A stretch of 64,000 nt of DNA, from NCBI GenBank assembly GCA_045613785.1, contig JAZLBQ010000007.1, positions 64,001 through 128,000 on the forward strand, given 5' to 3'. Within the stretch, counting starts at the first letter, position 1; each line of letters opens with the position of its first letter. The notes below the pieces were generated by a model. That model was not told the DNA's origin and ran no database searches. It saw only the letters and a list, made by a program, of their open reading frames with translations. The position numbers and the translations under genes were made by a program. The DNA is from Candidatus Enterousia sp. (GTDB taxonomy: Bacteria > Pseudomonadota > Alphaproteobacteria > Rs-D84). Shown here piece by piece: positions 8,351 to 32,263 of the stretch.

Positions 8351-8461
8351 TTGACTTTTTGTCAAAAATATGATACCATACAACACATAAACAGCACAGA
8401 TTTTGCCCACAGCGTTAGTTGTGGCTTTTTTATTGCCCCACGTCCACGGACGTGGTTTTTT
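8351..8461 (+). promoter_or_regulatory. Promoter followed by two tandem terminator hairpins (leader of the phage-like unit)
   Basis: TTGACT-N17-TACCAT (8351-8379); CCACAGC-GTTA-GTTGTGG-C-TTTTTT; CCACGTC-CACG-GACGTGG-TTTTTT. Confidence 0.65.
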
Positions 8462-8486
8462 GTTTATAATCCCAAAAGGTAAAATA

Positions 8487-8903
8487 ATGCAAATGAGCAT
8501 AATAAATAATCCGGACACAACGGGCCGGTTGGCACTGCTATATAAAATTGCAAGAGTTGTCTATGCACAAACGGGAGCTGTCTCATTACCCTTGGTCGAA
8601 GCCTTTACATCAATGATAAAAAACATTGTTGATAAAACGGGAACGGACATTTCGATTGTGATTCAAGATTCGAATTTATTTCCCTCATTACGCAAATCAG
8701 ATATAAATCACAATCGGATATTTGTTTCGGCATCTAATCCAGGATTTCAAATGTGCTTGCGAACGGCAGGTCGAATTATGTCGGGCTGTTTAGGGGATTG
8801 TTGTTATGGTGCGACAAAATATCACTATGCGGATACAATACCTGATTGGGCATTATCACGTGGTTATATTGCAGACATTGATGGCATATTATTTTACACA
8901 TAA
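8487..8903 (+). CDS. SleB/Hydrolase_2-like cell-wall hydrolase, phage-derived, possibly inactive
   Basis: IARVVYAQ, FQMCLRTA, GATKYH, PDWA, ILFY pattern; AAAGG RBS before ATG 8487. Confidence 0.65.
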   Translation: MQMSIINNPDTTGRLALLYKIARVVYAQTGAVSLPLVEAFTSMIKNIVDKTGTDISIVIQDSNLFPSLRKSDINHNRIFVSASNPGFQMCLRTAGRIMSGCLGDCCYGATKYHYADTIPDWALSRGYIADIDGILFYT

Positions 8904-8919
8904 TTAAAAAAGAAAATAC

Positions 8920-9117
8920 ATGAGAAATTTTTTCAAGGGTGGATATTTATCTGGATATCGCACCTATATAATTTCTGCAAGTGGGATTATATCTGCGGTT
9001 GCGGCATATCTGGTTGGAGATGCAGATTTATTTACAATGTTGCAGACAATATTTACATTAGCGGGGATATATTTTTTACGACGCTCTAATGAAAACAAAG
9101 GACAAGACAATGGATAA
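8920..9117 (+). CDS. Small 2-TM holin-like protein
   Basis: GYRTYI N-terminus, two hydrophobic helices, basic tail; follows the hydrolase. Confidence 0.55.
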   Translation: MRNFFKGGYLSGYRTYIISASGIISAVAAYLVGDADLFTMLQTIFTLAGIYFLRRSNENKGQDNG

Positions 9118-9766
9118 AATACCAGAAAAATTTTTAAATTCTGATGGAACATTAAACAGTGAGATGTTGGTAAAATCATACACAGAATTGGAAAAGAAAT
9201 TAAACACAATGATATCGATTCCAACAGCAGATGATACGCCCGATATTCGTCAAAAATTTAATCGTGCAATTGGTGTTCCAGAAACGCCATCGCAATATCC
9301 AACAAATGAATTATACGACGACGAGAATTTGCGTCAGAAATTTTTTGATATTGGTTTAACATCAAAACAGGTAGAAAAGATTTATGACATTGCGAATGAA
9401 TTTTTAACACCGATTGTATCAGAAATTTTTTCTGTTCAAAATCAATCCAGTGCAATAAATGAATTAAGAAATTTTTTTGGCACAGAACAAAAAATGATAG
9501 ATGCCTTAACTGCGATTGAATCATTTGGAATACGTTTTTTGCCGCACGATGCATTTGTTGAATTATCGGCTACAGCCCAGGGAATTCAAAGCATTTATAA
9601 GATGATGCAAACAATGGAACCCAGTGTTCACACTGATAAAAATTCAAATGAAAATTTATCAGATTCTGATTTGCGACGCATGATGCAAGATCCAAAATAT
9701 TGGCGTGATAATGATACAGAATACATTCGCAAAATAGAAAACGGATTTAAAAAATTATATTCATAA
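9110..9766 (+). CDS. Podophage-type capsid scaffolding/assembly protein
   Basis: IPEKF...LVKSYTELEKKL, GVPETPSQY, C-terminal LRRMMQDPKYWRD...GFKKLY. Confidence 0.75.
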   Translation: MDKIPEKFLNSDGTLNSEMLVKSYTELEKKLNTMISIPTADDTPDIRQKFNRAIGVPETPSQYPTNELYDDENLRQKFFDIGLTSKQVEKIYDIANEFLTPIVSEIFSVQNQSSAINELRNFFGTEQKMIDALTAIESFGIRFLPHDAFVELSATAQGIQSIYKMMQTMEPSVHTDKNSNENLSDSDLRRMMQDPKYWRDNDTEYIRKIENGFKKLYS

Positions 9767-9872
9767 ATATAAAAAATAACTTTTCTTCTTTACTAATTTT
9801 TTGATTTCAGATAAAATATGAATCAAGAACAAAACGAATTTGTTCTAACCAAACGTTAGAAGGAGAGAAGGG

Positions 9873-10334
9873 ATGGGATTTTTCTTTAGAAAATCTAAAA
9901 AAGTAGAAGAAGTAAAACCAGTTGTAAAACCAGCAACAAAGAAAGCAACTGCAAAAAAACCAGCTGCCAAGAAAGTGGCTGCAAAACCAGCTGCAAAAAA
10001 AGTAGCGGCAAAACCAGTTGCAAAAAAAGTAGCTGCAAAACCAGTTGCAAAGAAAGTGGCTGCAAAACCAGTTGCAAAAAAAGTGGCTGCAAAACCAGTT
10101 GCAAAGAAAGTAGCTGCAAAACCAGTTGCAAAAAAAGTAGCTGCAAAACCAGTTGCAAAGAAAGTAGCTGCAAAACCAGTTGCAAAAAAAGTAGCTGCAA
10201 AACCAGTTGCAAAGAAAGTAGCTGCAAAACCAGTCGCAAAAAAAGTGGTTGCAAAACCAGTCGCAAAAAAAGTGGTTGCAAAACCAGTTGCAAAGAAAGC
10301 TTGTGCGAAAAAAGCATGTGCTAAAAAGAAATAA
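9873..10334 (+). CDS. Histone H1-like Lys/Ala/Pro-rich DNA-binding protein
   Basis: 12 tandem KP(V/A)AKKV(A/V)A units; TTTACT-N17-TAAAAT promoter, strong RBS, terminator at 10339-10364. Confidence 0.8.
   Translation: MGFFFRKSKKVEEVKPVVKPATKKATAKKPAAKKVAAKPAAKKVAAKPVAKKVAAKPVAKKVAAKPVAKKVAAKPVAKKVAAKPVAKKVAAKPVAKKVAAKPVAKKVAAKPVAKKVAAKPVAKKVVAKPVAKKVVAKPVAKKACAKKACAKKK
9957..10298 (+). repeat. 27-bp coding tandem repeat, 12 full copies plus a partial copy
   Basis: AAACCAGTTGCAAA(A/G)AAAGT(A/G)GCTGCA repeated. Confidence 0.95.
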
Positions 10335-10338
10335 TAAA

Positions 10339-10412
10339 TTCCCCACATCTGTGGGGATTTTTTTATAAAAGTATCAGTCAGATTATAAACATTGTCTGAC
10401 TGATATTTTTTT
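10339..10412 (+). terminator. Two tandem intrinsic terminators between the H1-like gene and the capsid gene
   Basis: CCCCAC-ATCT-GTGGGG-ATTTTTTT and TATCAGTCAGA...TCTGACTGATA-TTTTTTT. Confidence 0.7.
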
Positions 10413-10543
10413 CTTTGGATAATCCTTGTTTTGGGGACCCATTACTTTTTATTTTTTTGGCACACGATGTGTATAACCAAAATACAAAATTTACCAGTGA
10501 TGCATTGCATCACTTTTAATTTTTATAACCAAAGGATTTTTAT

Positions 10544-10753
10544 ATGTCTGTTTCCATAGATAACGTATTTGTGAAACAATTCGAAGCGGATGTTCATTTG
10601 GCATATCAACAAATGGGCACAAAACTGCGTTCTACTGTTCGCAGTAAATCGGGTGTTATTGGTGCATCAACAACATTTCAAAAGGTCGGTCGTGGCACAG
10701 CCAGCACAAAATCACGTCATGGTATTGTTCCTGTGATGAATTTGAATCACTAA
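10544..10753 (+). pseudogene. Major capsid protein, N-terminal 69 aa only
   Basis: MSVSIDNVFVKQFEADVHLAYQQMGTKLRSTVR...FQKVGRG.ASTKSRHG.VPVMN is the N-terminus of Rhodospirillales podophage-type capsids; AAAGGA RBS; abrupt stop. Confidence 0.75.
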
Positions 10754-10906
10754 TAGATTACACACACCAGGTTATCCAGGATAAATTGGGGGGTGGGGCA
10801 GTATTGGGACTTTACAGAAATCTGCTGTCAGTTTTGGAAAATGCGCTGCCAAAATTGATAAATGATTATGGGCTGATAACAGAAACAGTTCCAAACGATA
10901 ATTGCG

Positions 10907-11509
10907 ATGATTACGGAGTTTTATAAATTTCTGGACACCTGGAACGACCTGTTAGGATTCAAGACCCCAAAGCATCATCGTCAGATAATGAAGTTTCTAT
11001 ATGATGTTTTGTGTGAATCACCGCATCGTGGATTGCTGATGGCATTTCGTCATTCTGGTAAATCGACGGTTGTTGGTATATTTGCGGCATGTGTTTTATA
11101 TTTGCGTCCCCAGACCCGAATTTTGATTTTATCTGCGGAAACCGGGCTGTCATCACGAATGGTGTCGCATATCAGGCATATATTGGAAAATCATCCGTAT
11201 TGTCAATCAATGATTCCTGCGAATAAAAAAGAGTGGGCTAATGGTCGCATAACTATAAATCGTCCGATTGGCATTCGTGAACCGTCTGTAATTTGCCAAG
11301 GTATTCACGGCAATATAACCGGTATGCGTGCAGATTTAATAATTTGTGATGATATCGAAGTGCCAAACACATCAAACACCGCCCAAAAAAGGGAATTTTT
11401 GCGTGAACGCTTGCGTGAACTAGATTTTATACTATCGCCCAACGGTGCAATGATTTATATTGGCACACCGCATACACATGATACTATTTATCAAACGGGG
11501 CTTGACTAG
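10907..11509 (+). CDS. Phage terminase large subunit, ATPase half only
   Basis: MAFRHSGKST (Walker A), TGMRADLIICDDIE (Walker B), YIGTPH coupling motif, then stop. Confidence 0.85.
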   Translation: MITEFYKFLDTWNDLLGFKTPKHHRQIMKFLYDVLCESPHRGLLMAFRHSGKSTVVGIFAACVLYLRPQTRILILSAETGLSSRMVSHIRHILENHPYCQSMIPANKKEWANGRITINRPIGIREPSVICQGIHGNITGMRADLIICDDIEVPNTSNTAQKREFLRERLRELDFILSPNGAMIYIGTPHTHDTIYQTGLD

Positions 11510-12147
11510 TTCAGACTGCTGACAAACGTCCGCAATTTACCCAGCAGTTCACTGCCCGCATCGCCGAACATTGGCAGATAAGTTTCATATTCTGGCATAT
11601 CGGCTTGAACCTGTGCACGAACACGTTCAGATATTGGGTTAGTAATAATTTCATTTGCACTGTCCCATAATCTGTATGCGTTGTATGTTTGGATAACCAT
11701 ATTCCATTTAGGCATTAAATCAGGACGCTTGGCCAGGGCAGCACGAATACCTGGTTGCCATTCTTCGCCGAAATCTTGGACAATTGCCAGTCCCATAAAC
11801 ATATCCAATCCTGTTTGGTCTGGTGTAAAATTATTTAATCCTTCTTCCAGTTCGTTCCATTGATTTTTGGTCAGGCTAACCGAATGAATTTCTTCATTTG
11901 TCATCATGCCACCGTATGGCAATAACTCTGGTTCGATTGAATTGATATCTGTCTTACCGCTACGCAGATTTTCGATATGTTGCACCAACAATTTACCTGT
12001 TGGCATTTCTTTCAGCTCCTTGATAACATCATCAGAAGCCTCGTTCAAGAAAACAGGATTTACAGTTGCCCAGCCACCAATAATAACATGTTCTTGGCGA
12101 TACAGATTTAACAGTCTTAGTGCGGTTGTGCTGCTTTTTGTGTTCAT
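11506..12147 (-). CDS. Hypothetical protein
   Basis: 213-aa ORF with GGAGAG RBS, third gene of the dnaB-strand block. Confidence 0.7.
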   Translation of the reverse strand: MNTKSSTTALRLLNLYRQEHVIIGGWATVNPVFLNEASDDVIKELKEMPTGKLLVQHIENLRSGKTDINSIEPELLPYGGMMTNEEIHSVSLTKNQWNELEEGLNNFTPDQTGLDMFMGLAIVQDFGEEWQPGIRAALAKRPDLMPKWNMVIQTYNAYRLWDSANEIITNPISERVRAQVQADMPEYETYLPMFGDAGSELLGKLRTFVSSLN

Positions 12148-12170
12148 TTTCTCTCTCCATAAGATTGGGA

Positions 12171-13178
12171 TTATTCGATTACAATCATCACAACCTTGTG
12201 CATTGTTTGTGCAGTAATTTTTTCTTCTGGTGAAACGATTTGTCCGTAAACTTTACCTTTGGAATCGCTGCGAACACTAACGATTTGTGCAGATACAGAT
12301 GTTTCATCATCCAACGAATCAAAGTCTGCATCAAAAGCGACGGCTAAATCACCAGGCTGTGCCACAGCGGTTGAGTCTGCAAACACATATGATTTTTCAG
12401 GGATAAAACCGCCCAGGCGTTTAGTATTAGGCATAACTGCATAAACACCGGTTTTGCCTTCTAAAGTGCTTGGTGCGACAATCATTGTTTTATCAGATTT
12501 TTTGAAAGTGATTGCCTTGCCTGTAGGTGTTCCAAAGACTGGCACCAGTTTTTTACGTGCACTGTCATATAATTTTGCACCATACAAACTGCCGTGCATA
12601 TCAATGCCAGACATTGGATTTCCAGGTTCCAAGACAGATTTAACACGTTCTTTGACCTTGCTGATTTGTTTGTTTAATTCGCCAGATTTATACAAGTTTG
12701 CAATCTTGTCGAACAAATCTTCTGCCCCCAGTGCAAATGATTTTGCCAATGGTTCGATTTCGTTTTTATAGATTTCACGCTGACCGACTTCGATTTTATG
12801 GTAAACAGACAAAGTCATACCGGCGTCTTTTGCAGCCTGTGCAATAGTTTTACCTTTTTGCTGGCGGATTTTACGTAATCCGCTACCAAAGACCTTTAAA
12901 CCGCTGTCTTCGTTATCGTTCAATCGTCTTTTGATTTCGCTTTGCCATTGACCTGCGACATCATCAGATTCTTTGATGAAAATATCGGATAATTTGCAGC
13001 CCAAAATATTGCATATATTCAGCAGTTGTTTTTGGTTCAGACGTCTGACACCTTTTTCAATTTTTGAAACAGCAGACAAAGACAATCCGGCCTTGCGTGC
13101 CAATTCTGTCATCTTCATACCATTTGCCAATCGAATATTGCGAATATTATTTGGAAAGATAATTTCTTCTTGGGCCAT
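12171..13178 (-). CDS. XRE-family regulator with two HTH domains and an S24-like C-terminus
   Basis: Two HTH_3 motifs (LSAVSKIEKG; LSVYHKIEVG), VPVFG. Confidence 0.8.
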   Translation of the reverse strand: MAQEEIIFPNNIRNIRLANGMKMTELARKAGLSLSAVSKIEKGVRRLNQKQLLNICNILGCKLSDIFIKESDDVAGQWQSEIKRRLNDNEDSGLKVFGSGLRKIRQQKGKTIAQAAKDAGMTLSVYHKIEVGQREIYKNEIEPLAKSFALGAEDLFDKIANLYKSGELNKQISKVKERVKSVLEPGNPMSGIDMHGSLYGAKLYDSARKKLVPVFGTPTGKAITFKKSDKTMIVAPSTLEGKTGVYAVMPNTKRLGGFIPEKSYVFADSTAVAQPGDLAVAFDADFDSLDDETSVSAQIVSVRSDSKGKVYGQIVSPEEKITAQTMHKVVMIVIE

Positions 13179-13253
13179 TGCAAACTCCTAAATGACTATT
13201 ACTTGACAAAATAATAGTCAATTTTTAACAACGGTGCAAGGAAATAATTATAA

Positions 13254-14819
13254 TTACAATGGCATATCGTCTGGAATTGCATCAGGGTCGATTGCTGTTG
13301 GTTCGGCATAAGCGTCATCAACAAATCCTGAATTTGATTGAGTAGGTGCTGGCTGTGCAAAATCGTTTTCACCACGAGCTTCAAAATCGTTCAGGTTGTC
13401 GAACAAACTGTAATCTCCAAAGAACGCTGTTCGCACAGTTTCTGGTCGTCCATGACGGTTTTTACCGATGATGATATCAGCCTTACCACGTGCCCGTTCT
13501 AATCTGTTTTGCCAAGAATCATGTGCTGATGAATTTACATTATTTGACATACGTTCGTTTGGATCACGGTTTTGCAGATAGTATTCTTCACGATATGTAA
13601 ACATAACGATGTCAGCGTCCTGTTCAATAGATCCAGATTCACGCAAGTCTGACAACATTGGTCGTTTATCATCACGAGATTCCACACTACGTGACAGCTG
13701 AGACAATGCGATAACAGGCACATCTAATTCTTTGGCCAACATTTTTAGACCTCTGGTAATTTCAGAAATTTCCTGAACACGATTATCGCTGTGTTTTCCG
13801 CCTGGGGATGTCATCAACTGTAAATAGTCCAAAACAATCAGTGCGATTCCGCCGTGTTTGCGTGCCAACCGTCTGGCTCTAGTTCGCATCATAGGCACAG
13901 ACATACCTGGTGTATCATCGATGAACAGTGGCACTTTGCCGATTGCAGCAGAATATTGCGACATTTTCAAGAAATCTTCATCAGTCAATTTACCTTCACG
14001 CATTGCTGTTGCGGGAACTTTTGATTGCGAAGACAGCACACGTGCCGCCAGCTGTGAAGCCGACATTTCAAGGCTGAAAAACACAACAGCACCCTTGTAA
14101 TTTTTATTTGCTCGTCCGTATGCGATGGCATTTGCGGCATTAAACGCAATATTCATTGCCAATGTTGTTTTACCCATCGCAGGTCGTCCTGCAATAATAA
14201 TCAAGTCCGAATGATGCAACCCACTGATTGAACCGTCCAGTGCGTCCAAGCCAGTTGTCAGACCTGACAATTGACCGTCTGCCTTGTATGCGATTTCTGC
14301 TTCGTTCAATGCACTTGCCAATGCGGCAGAAATAGGTGTGACCTCACGCTCAGAAGCCCCTGTTGTTGCCATTTCGAACAGTTTTTGTTCTGCCATTTCG
14401 ATTTGGCGTGCCACAGGCGTGTCCAGATCCTCGACAAAAGCCTTGCCTACGATATCCTGACCCAAGGCGATTAAATCACGACGCATTGCGTGTTCATAAA
14501 CAATACGTCCATATTGCTCAACGTTGACAACGGTTGTTCCTGCACTGGCCAACTGGCTTAGATAATCAACACCACCAACAGATTCCAAAACGCCTTGTTG
14601 GTCCAGATAGTTTTTTGCAGTAATGATATCGAACGGGATACCGGCGGCAAACTGCCGATTTGCCAACTTAAAAATTTCTTGGTGTGCGGGGTGGGTAAAG
14701 TGTTCCGCCCGCAGGAATTCACCCACACGTTCCAACGCACGATTGTCCATCAGCACAGCGGCCAACACGGCCTGTTCTGCTTCCAAGTTTTCAGGCAATT
14801 TTTTGGGGGTAAAATCCAT
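13254..14819 (-). CDS. dnaB: Replicative DNA helicase
   Basis: EAEQAVL, GRPAMGKT, FSLEM, DYLQL, LSQLSR, DLRESGSIEQDAD, KNRHG. Confidence 0.97.
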   Translation of the reverse strand: MDFTPKKLPENLEAEQAVLAAVLMDNRALERVGEFLRAEHFTHPAHQEIFKLANRQFAAGIPFDIITAKNYLDQQGVLESVGGVDYLSQLASAGTTVVNVEQYGRIVYEHAMRRDLIALGQDIVGKAFVEDLDTPVARQIEMAEQKLFEMATTGASEREVTPISAALASALNEAEIAYKADGQLSGLTTGLDALDGSISGLHHSDLIIIAGRPAMGKTTLAMNIAFNAANAIAYGRANKNYKGAVVFFSLEMSASQLAARVLSSQSKVPATAMREGKLTDEDFLKMSQYSAAIGKVPLFIDDTPGMSVPMMRTRARRLARKHGGIALIVLDYLQLMTSPGGKHSDNRVQEISEITRGLKMLAKELDVPVIALSQLSRSVESRDDKRPMLSDLRESGSIEQDADIVMFTYREEYYLQNRDPNERMSNNVNSSAHDSWQNRLERARGKADIIIGKNRHGRPETVRTAFFGDYSLFDNLNDFEARGENDFAQPAPTQSNSGFVDDAYAEPTAIDPDAIPDDMPL

Positions 14820-14838
14820 GACACAATCCTTTTCTTCT

Positions 14839-15132
14839 ATGCCCATAGTATATGAAAAAAACGCTTTTTCAACGCCTTTTTTATCGGGATATAAAACCTT
14901 GAAAATTCCGATAGTTAGTCCTGAGGGCGAACCTGCATGGCCTGAATTGTTTCCACTTTCCAGGATTCATCAATTACAAGAAACAGTTGGACATCGCCAC
15001 TTTTCGTCTCAGATGATGCTGGAATTTGTTCCGCCAAATCGCATTCGCCTAGATCCTGGAAGTTTGCATTTTTACGACAGCGAATTTGACCGTCGGTCGG
15101 CAAATCAGTCTTGGAACATTTGCGTCAGATAA
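14839..15132 (+). pseudogene. Terminase large subunit C-terminal half, truncated
   Basis: PFLSGYKTLKIPIV...AWPELFP...FSSQMML...RLDP continues the terminase sequence past GTPH; similarity lost after about 15104. Confidence 0.7.
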
Positions 15133-15257
15133 CAATTGAACGTCCAATTGGTTCAAACGCCACTGATAATGAATTACGCTGGTTTGCTGCTCAGTCAGCA
15201 CTGGTCCGTCACATAGAATCTCTTGTTTCCCAGGGCAGGGGGTGTTCAAATGTTTAA
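15099..15257 (+). pseudogene. Bbp19-like phage protein, 3' remnant without start codon
   Basis: Manual frame: GKSVLEHLRQITIERPIGSNATDNELRWFAAQSALVRHIESLVSQGRG. Confidence 0.6.
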
Positions 15258-15486
15258 CCTGGAATTTTTACGCAACAGTTGGTTTTTGATTGCATTTATT
15301 GGTGGGCTGATTTATTGGGCAGCTCGCCAAGATTTATCTGTTGCGGAACACGAACACTTTGACAGTCGTATAACCTCGCTGGAAAATCGCACGACGATAC
15401 TGGAAACTGGTATTGGTCAGATTCAGATAAAAATAGACGACATCAAAGAAGATTTAAATTTAATAAAAAGTGCCGTTATAAAGTAA
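15250..15486 (+). CDS. Small TM plus coiled-coil phage-like protein
   Basis: MFNLEFLRNSWFLIAFIGGLIYW, then heptads RITSLE...IDDIKEDL. Confidence 0.6.
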   Translation: MFNLEFLRNSWFLIAFIGGLIYWAARQDLSVAEHEHFDSRITSLENRTTILETGIGQIQIKIDDIKEDLNLIKSAVIK

Positions 15487-15517
15487 AGCACGGCCAAAAC
15501 TATAAAGGAAAAGAATT

Positions 15518-16030
15518 ATGGCACGCAGCATCAGATTCCGCCGTGGAACGGCAGTTCAGCATGAAACATTTACCGGTGCCCAGGGGGAAATCACAGTTGA
15601 CACGACAAACAACACCCTACGGGTTCACGATGGTTTAACGCTTGGTGGCACCATCTTGGCGAAACGCAGTGAAATTCCAGATTTTTCTGGGGTTGACTAC
15701 GTTATTGCCTGGCAAAACCCCAGCCCAGAAAACAATTACACCTGGTATCGGAAATATAAATCTGGTTGGGTTGAACAGGGGGGCAGTGATTTTACCCCCA
15801 GAACCATAAATGCAGGCACGGGAACAGCCTGGTATGTCCCAATGCCGGTCCCGATGAGTGATACAAAATACAACATTCAAATATCATTTGACAACGGGAA
15901 CTTGGTCCCTGCTGTGAATAATAACAATCTGACAACCACAACCCAGGTTTATTTGGGCTGTAAAAACCAGGGCAGTGCAAATGTCACCAGCCAGGTTCAA
16001 TATTGGTATGTCTGCGGAATATCTGCATAA
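15518..16030 (+). CDS. Short tail-fibre-like protein (Mtd N-terminal domain plus gp53-like C-terminal domain)
   Basis: IRFRRGT...FTGAQGEITVDT...LRVHDG.T.GG; WYRKYKSGWVEQGG...WYVCG. Confidence 0.75.
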   Translation: MARSIRFRRGTAVQHETFTGAQGEITVDTTNNTLRVHDGLTLGGTILAKRSEIPDFSGVDYVIAWQNPSPENNYTWYRKYKSGWVEQGGSDFTPRTINAGTGTAWYVPMPVPMSDTKYNIQISFDNGNLVPAVNNNNLTTTTQVYLGCKNQGSANVTSQVQYWYVCGISA

Positions 16031-16035
16031 CAAAC

Positions 16036-16058
16036 AAAACCGGGGAAACCCGGTTTTA
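16036..16058. terminator. Bidirectional terminator
   Basis: AAAACCGGG-GAAA-CCCGGTTTT between convergent genes. Confidence 0.75.
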
Positions 16059-17642
16059 CTTTAATTTTATACCTGTCCATTCCGTAACATTTTTAATTTG
16101 TTCGTCATTTTTGCTTTCTGCGACGTTTGTTGCGGCTAATGTCATCTCGTTAGTCAAACGCAATTCACGTGCAGGATTTACATAAACACACTTGAAATCA
16201 GACGGCACAACATTTATCAACGTCTGGTTTTTAACAGCCATTGCCCAGAACCAAACATCGTCCGCCAACGGTGCCAACTTTTGAAACATTGGCTGATTTA
16301 AGACGTCTTTATCCAATACGTGTGGCGGATACAAAACACCGCCAACCCCGGTCAAGAAGTTCAGATAAGACGGTGTTTTATTTTTCGTCTGATGTTCCCA
16401 CTTGTTATACGGGCGCAAATTCCCACGTTTATCAAACAATATTTTATGCGCACGCAGGCAATGAATCTGATTTGGTGTTTTCAGGTATGCATTGTATAAT
16501 TTTTCAACCAACCAATCAGGATAATAAATATCGTCATCAACGGTTATTATTATATCATTTGGAAATTCCTTTAATGACGGCACCAGTTTTGTATAAGACC
16601 GAATATCATCACACCATTTGATTGTTAAACCCTTGTCCAGAAACTGCAATACAGATTCCGGTAAATCTGCTTCTTTGTTTGGGAATTTATCCGCACCCAA
16701 CCACAAAACAATCATATCGGGTTTTAATGTCTGGGTCAGCAAAGAATACAATGTAAAATGAATATCAGACATCCGTTGTGGAAATGACGTCAACGACATA
16801 ATAATCCGTGGATTGCGTCCTGAATTTTTATCAATGCCAACATCGTTAAAATTTTTAATCTGTTCGTCAATCGCATTGCGGTCAATGTGCGGAATTGAAT
16901 CAATCTGTGATTGCCGCCAATTTGCCAACGTCCATGGATTAGAACGGTCCCACGTAATTCCACGTTTTACAATTTGTCCCGGGTTGCCGGCAATAACAAC
17001 ATTTGTTTCCACATAGTTCCGATAGCAAACAGCCCCACCTGAAACGATTGAATTATCGTGAATGTTTGCACGCTTGGTTATTCTGACGCCTTCGCCCACC
17101 CAAACATGATTACCAATAACAACAGGACCAGTTGGTGTATTCAAAATTTCCAATGTTTTCACATCCAGCACCGAATGACCATCCGATGCCCATATGTTAA
17201 TCGAATTTGAAAACATACAATCGTTTCCAATTATGCAACCACTGCGTTCTGGCAGTTTTATTGTTGTTCCATAAAATGTTGAACCTCGTCCAATTTTACA
17301 AATCTGTCCATCACCACAACGAATGTCGATATTTACATTATAAAACTTTGGCGAAGAACCGATTTCAACCAACGCATTATCATTTTCAATCGTGATTGCT
17401 GAATTTGTTGCCACGATTGGCAATTCCAGTTTAACTGTATTGTTATTACCACGGATTTTGATTTTCAAACCGTTTATGGTTTCGTTTTTACGCATTGGCC
17501 GTTCAACACCATTTTCAACAATGATAATCCGGTTGTTTTGACCAACGTTTTTCTGTGTCTTGCGATAACTGATAATCTTAACCCCTAACAAATAAATATG
17601 TCGGCGGCCATTTGGGTATCTGACTTTTTTGAAAATCTTCAT
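16056..17642 (-). CDS. Left-handed beta-helix acyltransferase fused to a glycosyltransferase
   Basis: IGNDCMFS..I.ASDGH, VIGNHVWVG, AGNPG; SLTSFPQR, TVDDDIYYP, GVGGVLYPP, DDVWFW. Confidence 0.8.
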   Translation of the reverse strand: MKIFKKVRYPNGRRHIYLLGVKIISYRKTQKNVGQNNRIIIVENGVERPMRKNETINGLKIKIRGNNNTVKLELPIVATNSAITIENDNALVEIGSSPKFYNVNIDIRCGDGQICKIGRGSTFYGTTIKLPERSGCIIGNDCMFSNSINIWASDGHSVLDVKTLEILNTPTGPVVIGNHVWVGEGVRITKRANIHDNSIVSGGAVCYRNYVETNVVIAGNPGQIVKRGITWDRSNPWTLANWRQSQIDSIPHIDRNAIDEQIKNFNDVGIDKNSGRNPRIIMSLTSFPQRMSDIHFTLYSLLTQTLKPDMIVLWLGADKFPNKEADLPESVLQFLDKGLTIKWCDDIRSYTKLVPSLKEFPNDIIITVDDDIYYPDWLVEKLYNAYLKTPNQIHCLRAHKILFDKRGNLRPYNKWEHQTKNKTPSYLNFLTGVGGVLYPPHVLDKDVLNQPMFQKLAPLADDVWFWAMAVKNQTLINVVPSDFKCVYVNPARELRLTNEMTLAATNVAESKNDEQIKNVTEWTGIKLK

Positions 17643-17656
17643 TTTGTATCCTTTGT

Positions 17657-18439
17657 TTATGCAATATTGCTCGGTTCTCCATATTGTTTAATATATTGTT
17701 CATATTTTTCTTTATATGCAGCTTCTTCTGGTCTAAAACTGTGCCACGAACCAACCCAATACACATTTTTGCGTTTTACTTGTGCAGGATTGCCTGCAAT
17801 CATTACATTATTGCCCGGCATTTCCTTTGTAACGACGGCTTTTGTTGCAACTATACAGTCGTTACCAATTTTTGCTTTTTTAAGAATTGTTGCCCCTGCA
17901 CCAATCCATACGTGGTCGCCAATGATTAAATCGTGTGGGGTGTCAACATATTCGTGTGTTTCTGAATCAAAAACCAAATGTGGAATTTCGCCCAGTCTGA
18001 ACAAAATATCCTTGGACATCAGACAGCGTTTACCAACGTGCAGTTTGCAATGATGTTGTTCAACCAAGATTTCTATAGCTACTATACATGCCCCTTCATC
18101 AATAAATATTTCAGAATTACTTATTTCTATATGGTTTCCAATATTGATGTGAACTGACTGGATTTCGCTTGATGGCATAATATGGATTTTATTATTGTTT
18201 CCACGGATATGAATATTCAGTTTTCCTCCACGCACAGATTTTCCAACAGTTATTTTATTATTATTTCCATAAATTGCGACACGGGCACGAATGGTTTCGT
18301 TATCAATATCGATTTGATTGTTTACTCCGGCATTAAGGATAATATTTTTTTGCTTTTTGCGATAAGAAAAAACCTTTATTCCTAAAAAGTAGATATGTCT
18401 GCGACCATTTTTGAAACGCACTTTTTTGAAAATTTTCAT
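17657..18439 (-). CDS. LbH hexapeptide acyltransferase
   Basis: IGDHVWIGAGATILKKAKIGNDCIV...AGNPA. Confidence 0.85.
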   Translation of the reverse strand: MKIFKKVRFKNGRRHIYFLGIKVFSYRKKQKNIILNAGVNNQIDIDNETIRARVAIYGNNNKITVGKSVRGGKLNIHIRGNNNKIHIMPSSEIQSVHINIGNHIEISNSEIFIDEGACIVAIEILVEQHHCKLHVGKRCLMSKDILFRLGEIPHLVFDSETHEYVDTPHDLIIGDHVWIGAGATILKKAKIGNDCIVATKAVVTKEMPGNNVMIAGNPAQVKRKNVYWVGSWHSFRPEEAAYKEKYEQYIKQYGEPSNIA

Positions 18440-18478
18440 TTTTTCTTCCTTTGCTTTACATGCTTACGCATAAAGCGT

Positions 18479-19240
18479 TCATGATTTTTGTGTCGGGATA
18501 AAGTGTGAAAATATTCGTTCCAACCAAAATTGTAGTTTCTTTCCTGTGGACACTTTATCCTGGTTATGTGCAGTGATATATTTAAATTCCAGGTCACCAT
18601 TCGCCCTGTGTTCGCCAGGTGTTGGATACAGTGGCACAGTTTCAATTCCAAATTTCCACGCACAATAGTTGTATGATAATTGGTCTCTCTTTGAATGTTT
18701 TTCAACAAAATACCACCACAGTTCCAATAAATGCTTTATTTTGTTATGCTGTCTGAACATAACATTTGTTTCTGCCAGTCCCTTATTTGATGGATAACCA
18801 TCACGTTGTAGAATTCGCATTTGCGTGTCAACGACATTGTCGATATCAATTTTGAGCTTTTTTATTATTTCTGCTTCGTCAAAGATACAGTTGCGTTGTG
18901 GATGCAATGGGATACTTATTAAAACATCATCTGCAATCAGTTTATTGACCTTGCTGAAAATATTAGAATTATTCACAGAAATATTCCCGTCCAGCCACAA
19001 ACTATATTCATATTCAGGAAACAGTATGTGTGCATTTATTTTGTGCCAGCGTGCATTTTTGACATTTGTTGATTTGTTATATGCCAACGGTCTGACATCC
19101 CAGTGTTCGTATTTTCCACGTTCAATCAGATCTTGATTGTCTGTAAACAATACATAGTCCCAATTTGGATTTACATATTTATGTACCGGCACATTATCGT
19201 AACCGCCAGTAATACAAGTATAGCAAACTTTCTTGCCCAT
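18479..19240 (-). CDS. DUF616/TOD1-like glycosyltransferase
   Basis: VCYTCITGGYD, SLWLDGN, HPQRNCIFDE, RDQLSYNY. Confidence 0.8.
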   Translation of the reverse strand: MGKKVCYTCITGGYDNVPVHKYVNPNWDYVLFTDNQDLIERGKYEHWDVRPLAYNKSTNVKNARWHKINAHILFPEYEYSLWLDGNISVNNSNIFSKVNKLIADDVLISIPLHPQRNCIFDEAEIIKKLKIDIDNVVDTQMRILQRDGYPSNKGLAETNVMFRQHNKIKHLLELWWYFVEKHSKRDQLSYNYCAWKFGIETVPLYPTPGEHRANGDLEFKYITAHNQDKVSTGKKLQFWLERIFSHFIPTQKS

Positions 19241-19249
19241 CTCTCACAC

Positions 19250-20188
19250 CTATTTTGCGTGTTTTATGCGGTGAATAAATCCAACCGGCAGAAAACCAAA
19301 AAGTTCAACCCGATATTTTAATTCTGCTGCACCGCCAAATGTATCTGTCATACGGTATATTTTTATAATCTGTAATCCCAGGATACGCAATTGAAATATC
19401 GGCTTATATAATAATTTTTTTTCTGGTATCTTTGGCATACGTCCCAACCAATTTTGCAAGATTGGAAATAGTTTTTCGTCTTCGATATGTTGCAACAAGA
19501 ACGCTTTGTTCAACACTTTTTGTGCAATAGACTTCTTTACAAATGGACAACCTAAACGCAGTATCATCAACGGTTCGTGATACATTAAATGGTATGTTTC
19601 GTCCAAATATTTTTCTGTATCTAAGTATGCTGAAAATTTATAGCCACGTCGAACCGCCCGATTTGTTAATTGAAATTCATATTTTGCACAAATAACAGAT
19701 TTTCCTGCTTCTTTTTTTACACTGCAAATAAAATCGTTAAAAAATTCCGCTGTTGCAACGTGTTGACTTAACCCCACAAACCACGATTGCAGATGTTCAC
19801 AAATATTTTTTTCACGGTATGAAATCAACCCTGTTAAATCAACCCCACGTGATTCCAGGTCTTCTACAATGGGCTTCAAATCAAACAGTGGTCCCAACAC
19901 AGAATCATTGACCAGATAAACCCAATCATATTTTTCTAGTAATTTATTATCACGGGCCCAGATATACGCACGCTTATACGAACCAAAATCATATTCGCCG
20001 TGACGCACCGCATTTGCGTATAAAACATTTGGTATTTGCCTTACCTTTTCAATTTCGACATCGGTCGCATCATTGTCCATAACAAAGACAATATCCCCCA
20101 ATCCTGACAAATGATTTAAATAATACAACAAACTATCATCGATAATTGCATCTTTGTCATAACCTGCAAACAAAAATAAGCGTTTCAT
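19250..20188 (-). CDS. Rhamnan synthesis F-like polysaccharide protein
   Basis: LFAGYD, HGEYDFGSYKR, LVNDSVLGP, HLQSWF, PFVKK. Confidence 0.8.
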   Translation of the reverse strand: MKRLFLFAGYDKDAIIDDSLLYYLNHLSGLGDIVFVMDNDATDVEIEKVRQIPNVLYANAVRHGEYDFGSYKRAYIWARDNKLLEKYDWVYLVNDSVLGPLFDLKPIVEDLESRGVDLTGLISYREKNICEHLQSWFVGLSQHVATAEFFNDFICSVKKEAGKSVICAKYEFQLTNRAVRRGYKFSAYLDTEKYLDETYHLMYHEPLMILRLGCPFVKKSIAQKVLNKAFLLQHIEDEKLFPILQNWLGRMPKIPEKKLLYKPIFQLRILGLQIIKIYRMTDTFGGAAELKYRVELFGFLPVGFIHRIKHAK

Positions 20189-31690: not shown

Positions 31691-32263
31691 TCAACAGTAA
31701 ACTCGGAATTTTACGTCCCAATTTTCATCATTTACATATGTTGTTTCACCTGTTTCTTTGTGGCTAACCCAGTATTGTTCATATCCGACCATAAGGCAAA
31801 CATGAAGGCCATTTTCATCTGTGTGCGTATTAGGTATAGGGTTGGTTCGGTTGCCGATTCCAAAAGCGTTTACAACATCGCCAACTTGATAGCCTGCATC
31901 AGAGGCTTTACAAACCAGGGTAGTTTGAATAAATTCAGGTTGTTTATCAGTATTGATGATAAAGTCCAGAAACGCACACTTGCTGTTGATTGGCACAGTG
32001 CGTGTTTCGATTGTATCGAAAGTTTTTGGAGCAAATTTTTCAACGATCTGTGTCCAGAATTCATCTGGGACGGTTTCTATGTCGATATTTCCAGAATTTG
32101 AATTTATCTGGTCTGCACGTGCCAGTGGTATTCCACCGATTGTCTGACCGTCGTGGACACGCAGTGTTTTATTGTCGGTATCCATTGTGATTTCACCAAT
32201 CATACCTGTAAAATTATCGTGTTCGTTTGCCGAGCCACGCCTGATTTGTATTATTCGTGACAT
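31691..32263 (-). CDS. Mtd N-terminal domain (tail-fibre-like) protein
   Basis: IQIRRG...FTGMIGEITMDTDNKTLRVHDGQTIGG, paralogous to 15518-16030. Confidence 0.7.
   Translation of the reverse strand: MSRIIQIRRGSANEHDNFTGMIGEITMDTDNKTLRVHDGQTIGGIPLARADQINSNSGNIDIETVPDEFWTQIVEKFAPKTFDTIETRTVPINSKCAFLDFIINTDKQPEFIQTTLVCKASDAGYQVGDVVNAFGIGNRTNPIPNTHTDENGLHVCLMVGYEQYWVSHKETGETTYVNDENWDVKFRVYC

Follow-up and report, generated by a model that had tools for sequence, protein, structure and literature searches.

The stretch of DNA analysed here (the window) comprises 64,000 nucleotides of contig JAZLBQ010000007.1 of Candidatus Enterousia sp. (assembly GCA_045613785.1, positions 64,001 to 128,000), and carries, at 8.4-16.0 kb, a group of phage-type genes that all lie on the plus strand. 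We interpret this group as what is left, after recent inactivation, of a T7-like podophage morphogenesis cluster that is vertically inherited and under selection in the family of Candidatus Enterousia, and put the probability of this reading at about 0.8. It is built on two deletions in the window, on the conservation of the cluster among relatives and the purifying selection acting on it, on an ancestral split of the large terminase subunit (TerL), and on the absence of integration genes, all of which are documented below. A first-pass annotation of the window had proposed a vertically inherited, podovirus-type system resembling a gene transfer agent (GTA), rather than a prophage; this proposal holds for the lineage, but not for the present genome, in which capsid, tail, portal and terminase nuclease have been lost. 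The genome is a metagenome-assembled genome (MAG) of a gut bacterium, with 26 contigs, 1.04 Mb, 40% GC and 96.5% completeness.

Two deletions have truncated the cluster in the window

The closest relative, G101 (locus L019), is about 93.5% identical to the window at the DNA level. In blastn comparisons, the window lacks two stretches of L019, 641-4602 (3.96 kb) and 8965-10847 (1.88 kb), and a blastn search of L019 against the genome found the deleted DNA on none of the 26 contigs. As a result of the first deletion, which begins at capsid codon 70 and stops shortly before the end of the fibre adaptor gene, the capsid start and the ATPase piece of TerL (terN) are separated by about 150 bp, compared to 3.6-6 kb in 19 of 19 relatives' loci. 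The second deletion extends from about codon 89 of the nuclease piece of TerL (terC) through the portal gene. In window coordinates, the genes and junctions are as follows:

8487-8903, plus strand: homologue of SleB-type cell-wall hydrolases (lysis), 138-166 residues; open reading frame (ORF) listed from 8403, likely start 8487
8920-9117, plus strand: holin-like membrane protein, 65 residues, two hydrophobic segments by eye in the translation
9089-9766, plus strand: T7-type capsid assembly (scaffold) protein, intact (PF05396, E 2.7e-10)
9873-10334, plus strand: histone H1-like gene with Lys/Ala tandem repeats, in the interval between scaffold and capsid (HC2, PF07382, 27.2 bits, under the 40-bit cut-off)
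10544-10753, plus strand: major capsid stump, codons 1-69 followed by TAA TAG (PF19821 positions 1-66 of 293, E 7.6e-17)
10742-10753: deletion junction 1, near-identical 9-bp direct repeats, running straight into TAA TAG
10751-10929, plus strand: 3' remnant of the T7-tail-fibre-N adaptor gene, last 59 codons and stop
10907-11509, plus strand: terN, the N-terminal piece of TerL, 200 residues, intact, with Walker A, Walker B and C-motif (phrog_38 positions 272-459 of 760, E 4e-42)
11506-12147, minus strand: o213, a 213-residue protein that travels with the following HTH gene
12171-13178, minus strand: 335-residue regulator with two XRE-type HTH domains (HTH_3, E 2.2e-21, two stretches)
13254-14846, minus strand: dnaB, between the TerL halves
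14839-15132, plus strand: stump of the C-terminal piece of TerL, about 88 genuine residues, 9 foreign codons and a stop (phrog_38 positions 468-539 at about 14890-15084, E 1.7e-5)
15099-15104: deletion junction 2, about 5 bp of microhomology; the rest of terC and the whole portal gene are gone
15223-15486, plus strand: 87-residue membrane/coiled-coil ORF, intact and conserved, located 3' of the portal gene in relatives
15518-16030, plus strand: Mtd_N-type tail-fibre tip gene, variable cargo (PF18454, E 4.3e-15)
31691-32263, minus strand: second, solitary Mtd_N gene, 190 residues (Mtd_N match)

The missing genes were identified in L019 by Pfam and PHROGs. The counterparts of deletion 1 are a 275-residue capsid, a 77-residue protein, tail tubular proteins A and B, a 115-residue protein and a 183-residue T7-fibre-N adaptor (phrog_1640 and PF03906), whose C-terminus equals the frame-0 translation of the remnant in the window. 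Beyond dnaB, G101 encodes a 282-294-residue TerL nuclease piece with a T7 RNaseH-like match (PF22530), followed by a 411-residue T7-type portal. Lost in the window are capsid residues 70-275, the 77-residue gene, both tail-tube genes, the 115-residue gene, most of the fibre adaptor, the nuclease half of the terminase and the portal. A portal match was found nowhere in the genome, and the assembly contains no second capsid of the same PF19821 type and no further phrog_38 terminase piece. Of the T7-like structural module that is present in G101 (PF12236, PF05396, tubes A and B, PF22530), the window retains only the scaffold gene and TerL fragments, and by its gene content this genome has no complete head, portal and terminase set. 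With the capsid body, the tail tube, the TerL nuclease and the portal missing from all contigs of the assembly, the cell cannot form particles.

The capsid start reported by the first-pass annotation is thus a genuine PF19821 match, but a deletion stump; likewise, the two terminase halves are genuine phrog_38 pieces whose split is old in the family, but the C-terminal piece is truncated. What had been taken for a dispersed, multi-locus layout consists of deletion stumps within one contiguous cluster. The surviving genes of the window copy are all intact, and terN shows a ratio of nonsynonymous to synonymous substitution rates (dN/dS) of only 0.016 relative to G101, at a dS of 0.41, indicating that the deletions are recent in relation to the divergence from G101.

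The intact cluster is conserved and under selection in the family

In G101, the first arm of the intact cluster runs from the SleB-type hydrolase through the holin-like gene, scaffold, H1-like gene, capsid, 77-residue gene, tube A, tube B, 115-residue gene and fibre adaptor to the ATPase piece of TerL. The middle part, on the opposite strand, comprises o213, the regulator with two HTH domains and dnaB, and the second arm the nuclease piece of TerL, the portal, the 87-residue protein and an optional Mtd fibre. To the extent that we could recognise gene families, nothing but the 115-residue ORF, which has no family match, lies between tube B and the fibre adaptor (no dedicated search for ejection or RNA polymerase families was made).

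We sampled 120 species-level relatives from the family of Candidatus Enterousia (order Rs-D84), representing 18 genera. The ATPase piece was matched in 109 of them, as an open frame of 200-255 residues in most, the capsid in 107 (in 104 cases at full length and uninterrupted by stops) and the portal in 106; capsid and terN are each found in 18/18 genera. In the 19 family loci that were fetched, hydrolase, holin-like gene, scaffold, capsid, 77-residue gene, tubes A and B, 115-residue gene and terN are full length wherever they are covered, and the fibre adaptor is matched in 14. Of the 18 relatives with a locus that includes the scaffold, 17 have a near-full-length match, and in the other one a contig end cuts it. 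The surroundings are also retained, with birA upstream in 12 of the 18 loci reaching that side and dnaB between the TerL halves in 13 of 19. The cluster is kept even in genomes of about 0.7-1.1 Mb.

Pairwise dN/dS values (Nei-Gojobori; medians over pairs with dS 0.1-1.0) are low throughout, at 0.042 for terN, 0.048 for the portal, 0.056 for the 77-residue gene, 0.062 for the capsid, 0.087 for tube B and 0.088 for terC, compared to 0.033 and 0.126 for the host genes dnaB and birA. The values of capsid, portal and TerL lie within 0.04-0.09, and by this measure the cluster genes are under purifying selection. In a tree of five concatenated cluster proteins, each multi-member genus lies on one side of a branch; the tree requires 3 genus-label changes, the minimum possible, a number equally low in 0 of 200 shuffles. 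By this fit to genus labels, the cluster is vertically inherited in the lineage. At this level, the gene content amounts to a complete head, short-tail, packaging and lysis set, which, as far as the sequences tell, is kept by selection in tiny genomes.

No integrase was found on the contig, in agreement with the first-pass annotation, and the two tyrosine recombinases of the genome sit on other contigs; tRNA genes were found nowhere within window positions 1-21,369. A self-propagation module is likewise not apparent, with no integrase on the contig and a dnaB that is the host's sole copy (the single match to the DnaB_C profile in the genome); phage polymerases were not searched by family.

TerL is encoded in two pieces

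TerL consists of two ORFs in 19/19 family loci, including G012, where only 427 bp lie between them. The ATPase ORF stops some 10 residues past the GTPH C-motif in all family loci; it is followed variously by the o213-HTH-dnaB block, which in the window occupies 11506-14846 on the minus strand, by dnaB alone, by the portal or by the 427-bp spacer. In the four genomes that have the nuclease piece outside the fetched locus it is intact in all, either about 16 kb away (G016, G039) or on another contig (G021, G008). Of 17 loci outside the order, 16 encode TerL in one uninterrupted frame of 494-658 residues; in the 17th (L138), the two matches share the start of the frame and give frame ends that differ by 45 nucleotides. 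The split is an old feature, ancestral in the family. In a genome of the same order but another family (G490), terN is a separate frame of 211 residues and terC was not found at E<=0.001.

The predicted complex of the two halves scored 0.83, compared to 0.00 for the best of three controls, and passed a mark that 58 of 80 solved complexes attain, as do 2 of 110 mismatched pairs. At least 95% of the contacts are common to the three runs, and the predicted local distance difference test score (pLDDT) of the partner is at least 78. In the predicted pairing, terC residues 14-25 contact terN residues 41-48, placing the N-terminal strand of the C-terminal piece against the strand that precedes Walker A. 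We infer that the family uses a two-polypeptide TerL; the window retains its ATPase piece and the stump that would donate the strand, while the nuclease has been lost. A literature match for a split terminase, on the phrase 'two separate genes', was discarded as it concerned lysis genes.

The start of the C-terminal piece and the annotated start of dnaB overlap head to head at window 14819-14846, so that the divergent promoters for dnaB-HTH-o213 and for terC and portal must lie in each other's coding regions.

Related clusters occur across Alphaproteobacteria

In a sample of 401 alphaproteobacterial genomes from 307 genera, a capsid profile gave full-length, mostly single-copy matches in 87 genomes and 71 genera; these genomes range from 0.9 to 6.6 Mb. 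Twenty class-level loci contain portal, scaffold, capsid, 77-residue gene, tube A, tube B, fibre adaptor, TerL and SleB-type hydrolase, at a local GC content of 0.38 to 0.70. The capsid tree of the class requires 16 family-label changes, against a minimum of 15 and a mean of 33.2 in shuffled labels, none of 200 shuffles being equally low. In 5/5 complete class-level genomes no integrase lies within 20 kb of the cluster, the nearest tyrosine recombinase being at least 30 kb away. Chromosomal class-level copies are 57-69% identical to the Enterousia capsid, and the nearest capsid of an isolated phage, Pelagibacter phage EXVC031P, is 44% identical.

The comparisons by which the first-pass annotation had suggested assessing vertical descent, namely synteny with birA and dnaB, trees against taxonomy and dN/dS, all came out in its favour, the cluster tree fitting genus labels and the capsid tree family labels. 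At the lineage level there is none of the patchiness, incongruence or near-identity to an integrase-bearing prophage that would have pointed elsewhere: the capsid and terN occur in all sampled genera, the trees are congruent with taxonomy and isolated phages are distant.

IMG/VR files the cluster as 'viral' or proviral contigs of about 10 kb, including host flanks such as birA and dnaB. Among database phages, rumen viral contigs of IMG/VR (L241-L243, one contig being of 37.5 kb) have a capsid of 65% identity together with Mtd_N and no other cluster gene; to judge from this gene content, they look like a mosaic true phage that shares parts with the domesticated set. A 5-kb unverified 'Bacteriophage sp.' entry from human faeces (MT838907.1, L172) has a capsid 64% identical to that of Enterousia; its place in the capsid tree, within a bacterial family (f59), makes it likely to be a piece of a chromosomal cluster. 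We found no papers on this cluster or on phage genes in Enterousia or Rs-D84, supplements aside; in an mSphere 2025 paper on these bacteria the terms 'phage', 'capsid', 'terminase' and 'gene transfer agent' do not occur, its supplements aside. The approximately 10-kb particles of Azospirillum were set aside as a precedent, since the paper concerned credits RcGTA-like genes and we could make no connection with this cluster.

Remaining genes, fibres and surroundings

The scaffold, the H1-like gene with its sub-threshold match, the Mtd_N fibre gene and the dnaB block were found as the first-pass annotation had described them, and the position of the H1-like gene is likewise occupied in L019. For the hydrolase, 8/8 homologues at class or order level match Hydrolase_2 (PF07486, SleB-type) and are tied to the window gene, as are those of relatives, by tblastn, but the window protein itself has no match in Pfam or PDB. 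The holin-like protein has two hydrophobic stretches, but no family match in Pfam or PHROGs; its gene neighbours that of the hydrolase in 18 of the 19 family loci (the other one, L019, begins downstream of it) and has a median dN/dS of 0.17.

No Pfam or PHROGs family was matched by o213, which in 15 of the 19 family loci lies next to terN, at its 3' end, and in a 16th at a distance of 2.5 kb. The regulator with two HTH domains has a median dN/dS of 0.044; an S24/LexA-like C-terminal domain, suspected from a motif seen by eye, was dropped, Pfam and PDB giving HTH only. The 87-residue ORF had been called a Bbp19-like remnant; it is in fact intact and conserved (median dN/dS 0.084, 23 sequences) and has no match at E<=1 among 50,697 phage records, its one weak match being to a family without assigned function, phrog_736 (E 0.0013).

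The distribution of the Mtd_N fibre genes is patchy, with 19 of 30 genus relatives having them. The second one, 16 kb away on the minus strand, is confirmed. The 3' part (tip) of the Mtd orthologue in L019 is 88% identical in DNA to a fibre-like gene, C21:2161-2457, on contig C21 of the assembly, and sequence similarity of this kind indicates that fibres are exchanged with phages. Between window 15223-16030 and L019 10971-11778, the 87-residue gene has a dS of 0.056, compared to 0.28-0.41 for its neighbours, and the Mtd proteins are 99% identical; these values suggest that the fibre end has recently been exchanged.

C21 (loci L173-L175) measures 40.6 kb, has a direct repeat of 141 bp at its ends and, like the host, is CGCG-depleted. 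It carries its own TerL (453 residues) and capsid (312 residues) and probably represents an entire circular phage genome that was binned along with the MAG. Its capsid match (PF19821 positions 76-293) was considered as the missing capsid half and rejected, as it belongs to a complete, different 312-residue capsid with a TerL of its own.

The depletion of CGCG and GCGC that had been noticed in the cluster is real: observed/expected ratios are 0.12 and 0.17 genome-wide, with 0 and 1 occurrences, respectively, in the 3.5 kb of cluster genes. As the phage contig of the same assembly is depleted too, the depletion cannot separate host-kept from phage genes. CG itself stands at 0.98 genome-wide, despite the strong avoidance of the two tetranucleotides, which looks like restriction-site avoidance. 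Directly downstream of the cluster, at 16056-20188 on the minus strand, lies a series of glycosyltransferase-like genes, two of which (16056-17642 and 17657-18439) share nearly the same approximately 30 N-terminal residues.

Discussion

To our knowledge, the alphaproteobacterial GTAs described so far are siphovirus-derived. Those of the RcGTA/CcGTA type are long-tailed particles with an HK97-type capsid, whose genes are vertically inherited, under purifying selection, without integrase and recurrently lost. The Enterousia cluster resembles them in its occurrence in Alphaproteobacteria, its vertical inheritance, purifying selection, lack of an integrase and recurrent loss, and in the presence of competence genes for uptake. 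It differs from them in its PF19821/phrog_3437 capsid, its T7 portal (PF12236) and its podoviral tubes A and B; with neither an HK97 capsid nor a long tail, it descends, as judged from these families, from a phage ancestor other than that of RcGTA. Among isolated phages, the T7-like Pelagibacter podophage EXVC031P Hodr (OQ414635.1) shares the gene order portal, scaffold, capsid, tube A, tube B, but is an autonomous phage of 34 kb, while the chromosomal copies are closer to one another and have no adjacent integrase. The likeness to BPP-1 that had also been proposed comes down to the N-terminal Mtd_N domain of the two window genes, of which only 36 residues match; no relative of Bbp19 was found, and the Mtd_N genes are patchy cargo.

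A close parallel by description is FpGTA, a podovirus-like, GTA-like element of Faecalibacterium prausnitzii (Nat Commun 2026, PMC12946183). Both are sets of chromosomal podovirus-like particle genes with associated lysis genes in gut bacteria, and both are near-ubiquitous in their lineage, with part of the set missing in some strains. FpGTA belongs to Firmicutes and is backed by observed particles, about 9 kb of packaged DNA and proteomics, whereas the Enterousia cluster is described here from its genes, has a T7-type module with TerL in two pieces, and is broken in the window.

In relatives of the window genome, the intact cluster would give rise to a GTA-like short-tailed particle, an outcome for which the gene content leaves us evenly divided. 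The two TerL polypeptides would reassemble through strand complementation. The two microhomology-mediated deletions leave the present cell unable to make procapsids, tails or a DNA-cutting terminase, and its lineage would then be a recent non-producer. A more far-reaching proposal, which we regard as tentative and rather doubtful, would take the cluster to be an undescribed, class-wide T7-type GTA of Alphaproteobacteria, with a two-polypeptide terminase split inside the ATPase fold in the sampled family, and the window to represent a non-producer or cheater lineage. Costly, lysis-linked genes would then have been shed stepwise, first from capsid to fibre and then portal and nuclease, while DNA uptake genes (ComEC and DprA, both present in the genome and both common genes) would have been retained, as might befit a cheater in a GTA public-goods system.

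A number of observations weigh against our interpretation. The capsid is absent from six genomes of at least 90% completeness, three relatives (G007, G022 and G033) have lost the portal while keeping the capsid, and G047, which has likewise lost the portal, has undergone an independent capsid-to-terN deletion (G047:C16:12194-12525), in which capsid residue 84 abuts terN residue 169. These capsid-less genomes and portal losses mean that the cluster is dispensable. G036 adds a portal loss of its own, as an independent partial decay, and in G022 (L032 5081-6325) the nuclease piece is followed directly by the 87-residue gene, the portal being gone. The description as GTA-like is drawn from the genes; a small terminase and ejection genes of the T7 gp15/gp16 type were not recognised, albeit by searches not dedicated to these families. 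The surviving intact genes could have a use of their own. The successful complex prediction, obtained with alignments of our own, may reflect likeness to solved single-chain TerL structures and not binding. Finally, deletion 2 is seen in this assembly only, and at its junction the contigs of all four sequencing runs discussed below leave the window exactly there, reading as the undeleted form.

Of the alternatives, the one that fares best, although we consider it unlikely, is that the cluster is kept by its hosts for something other than gene transfer, as a particle that is free of DNA or filled with its own DNA and serves killing, defence or lysis-linked release. It could draw on the lack of recognisable ejection proteins and small terminase, on fibres that are variable and shared with phages, and on PBSX-type elements, which, according to the FpGTA paper (PMC12946183), package DNA yet act as killers. 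The strong selection on the terminase ATPase and nuclease, the portal and the capsid argues, however, that DNA packaging matters, and ComEC and DprA are present, common as these genes are.

It is improbable that one or both deletions are assembly artefacts or minority variants and that the dominant strain is intact. We inspected the junctions in Logan contigs of four runs from four studies (X3, X5, X6 and X7). These runs hold at most 71% of the sampled words of the window and hence carry related strains and not the source. Junction 1 is spanned by an independent 386-bp contig from X6 (10534-10919, 2 mismatches), so that deletion 1 occurs in at least one other sample, while in X5 and X7 contigs continue into a full capsid. 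Junction 2 was bridged by no contig in any of the four. X6, with junction 1 deleted and junction 2 undeleted, fits a stepwise loss, but could also be a mixture of strains. An artefact in a 26-contig MAG would accommodate the undeleted sequence at junction 2 in the four runs and at junction 1 in two; against it stand the relatedness, as opposed to identity, of the strains in these runs, the independent contig across junction 1 and the absence of the missing DNA from all other contigs. In addition, de Bruijn assemblers do not create joins over 5-9 bp of microhomology without supporting reads, which makes such joins unlikely on general grounds.

There is very little to recommend the view that the cluster, in the window and in the lineage alike, is an ordinary decaying prophage remnant of no use to the host. 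Decay is indeed under way in the window copy, partial losses arose independently in G047, G036 and G022, and IMG/VR treats the cluster as proviral; yet the genes are intact in about 90% of the 120 relatives, across 18 genera, with dN/dS values as low as that of dnaB, the class-level loci span the stated range of local GC (a property of the loci only), and the trees follow taxonomy. Least probable of all is that this genome has a functional GTA spread over several loci, with head, tail and portal encoded elsewhere. For this, one could invoke the multi-locus layout of known GTAs, such as operons I and II of FpGTA, about 125 kb apart (PMC12946183), and the second Mtd_N gene 16 kb off, but it is contradicted by the lack of any same-type capsid, portal or phrog_38 piece elsewhere in the 96.5%-complete assembly, by the assignment of the only other capsid and TerL to the unrelated circular phage contig C21, and by the position in relatives of the genes missing here, which coincides with the window junctions.

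Returning to the interpretation as an inactivated copy of a cluster maintained in the lineage, the window adds a doubly deleted copy, a class-wide picture of unsplit TerL and TerL halves that survive apart, and represents a natural knock-out that is dated and stepwise. Should particles be made by the intact cluster, Alphaproteobacteria would have a second, podovirus-derived GTA family, and a large terminase would be able to work as two separately encoded pieces. By comparing such deletion strains with intact sisters from the same gut samples, one could directly approach the purpose of the particles and the question of whether cheating non-producers spread.

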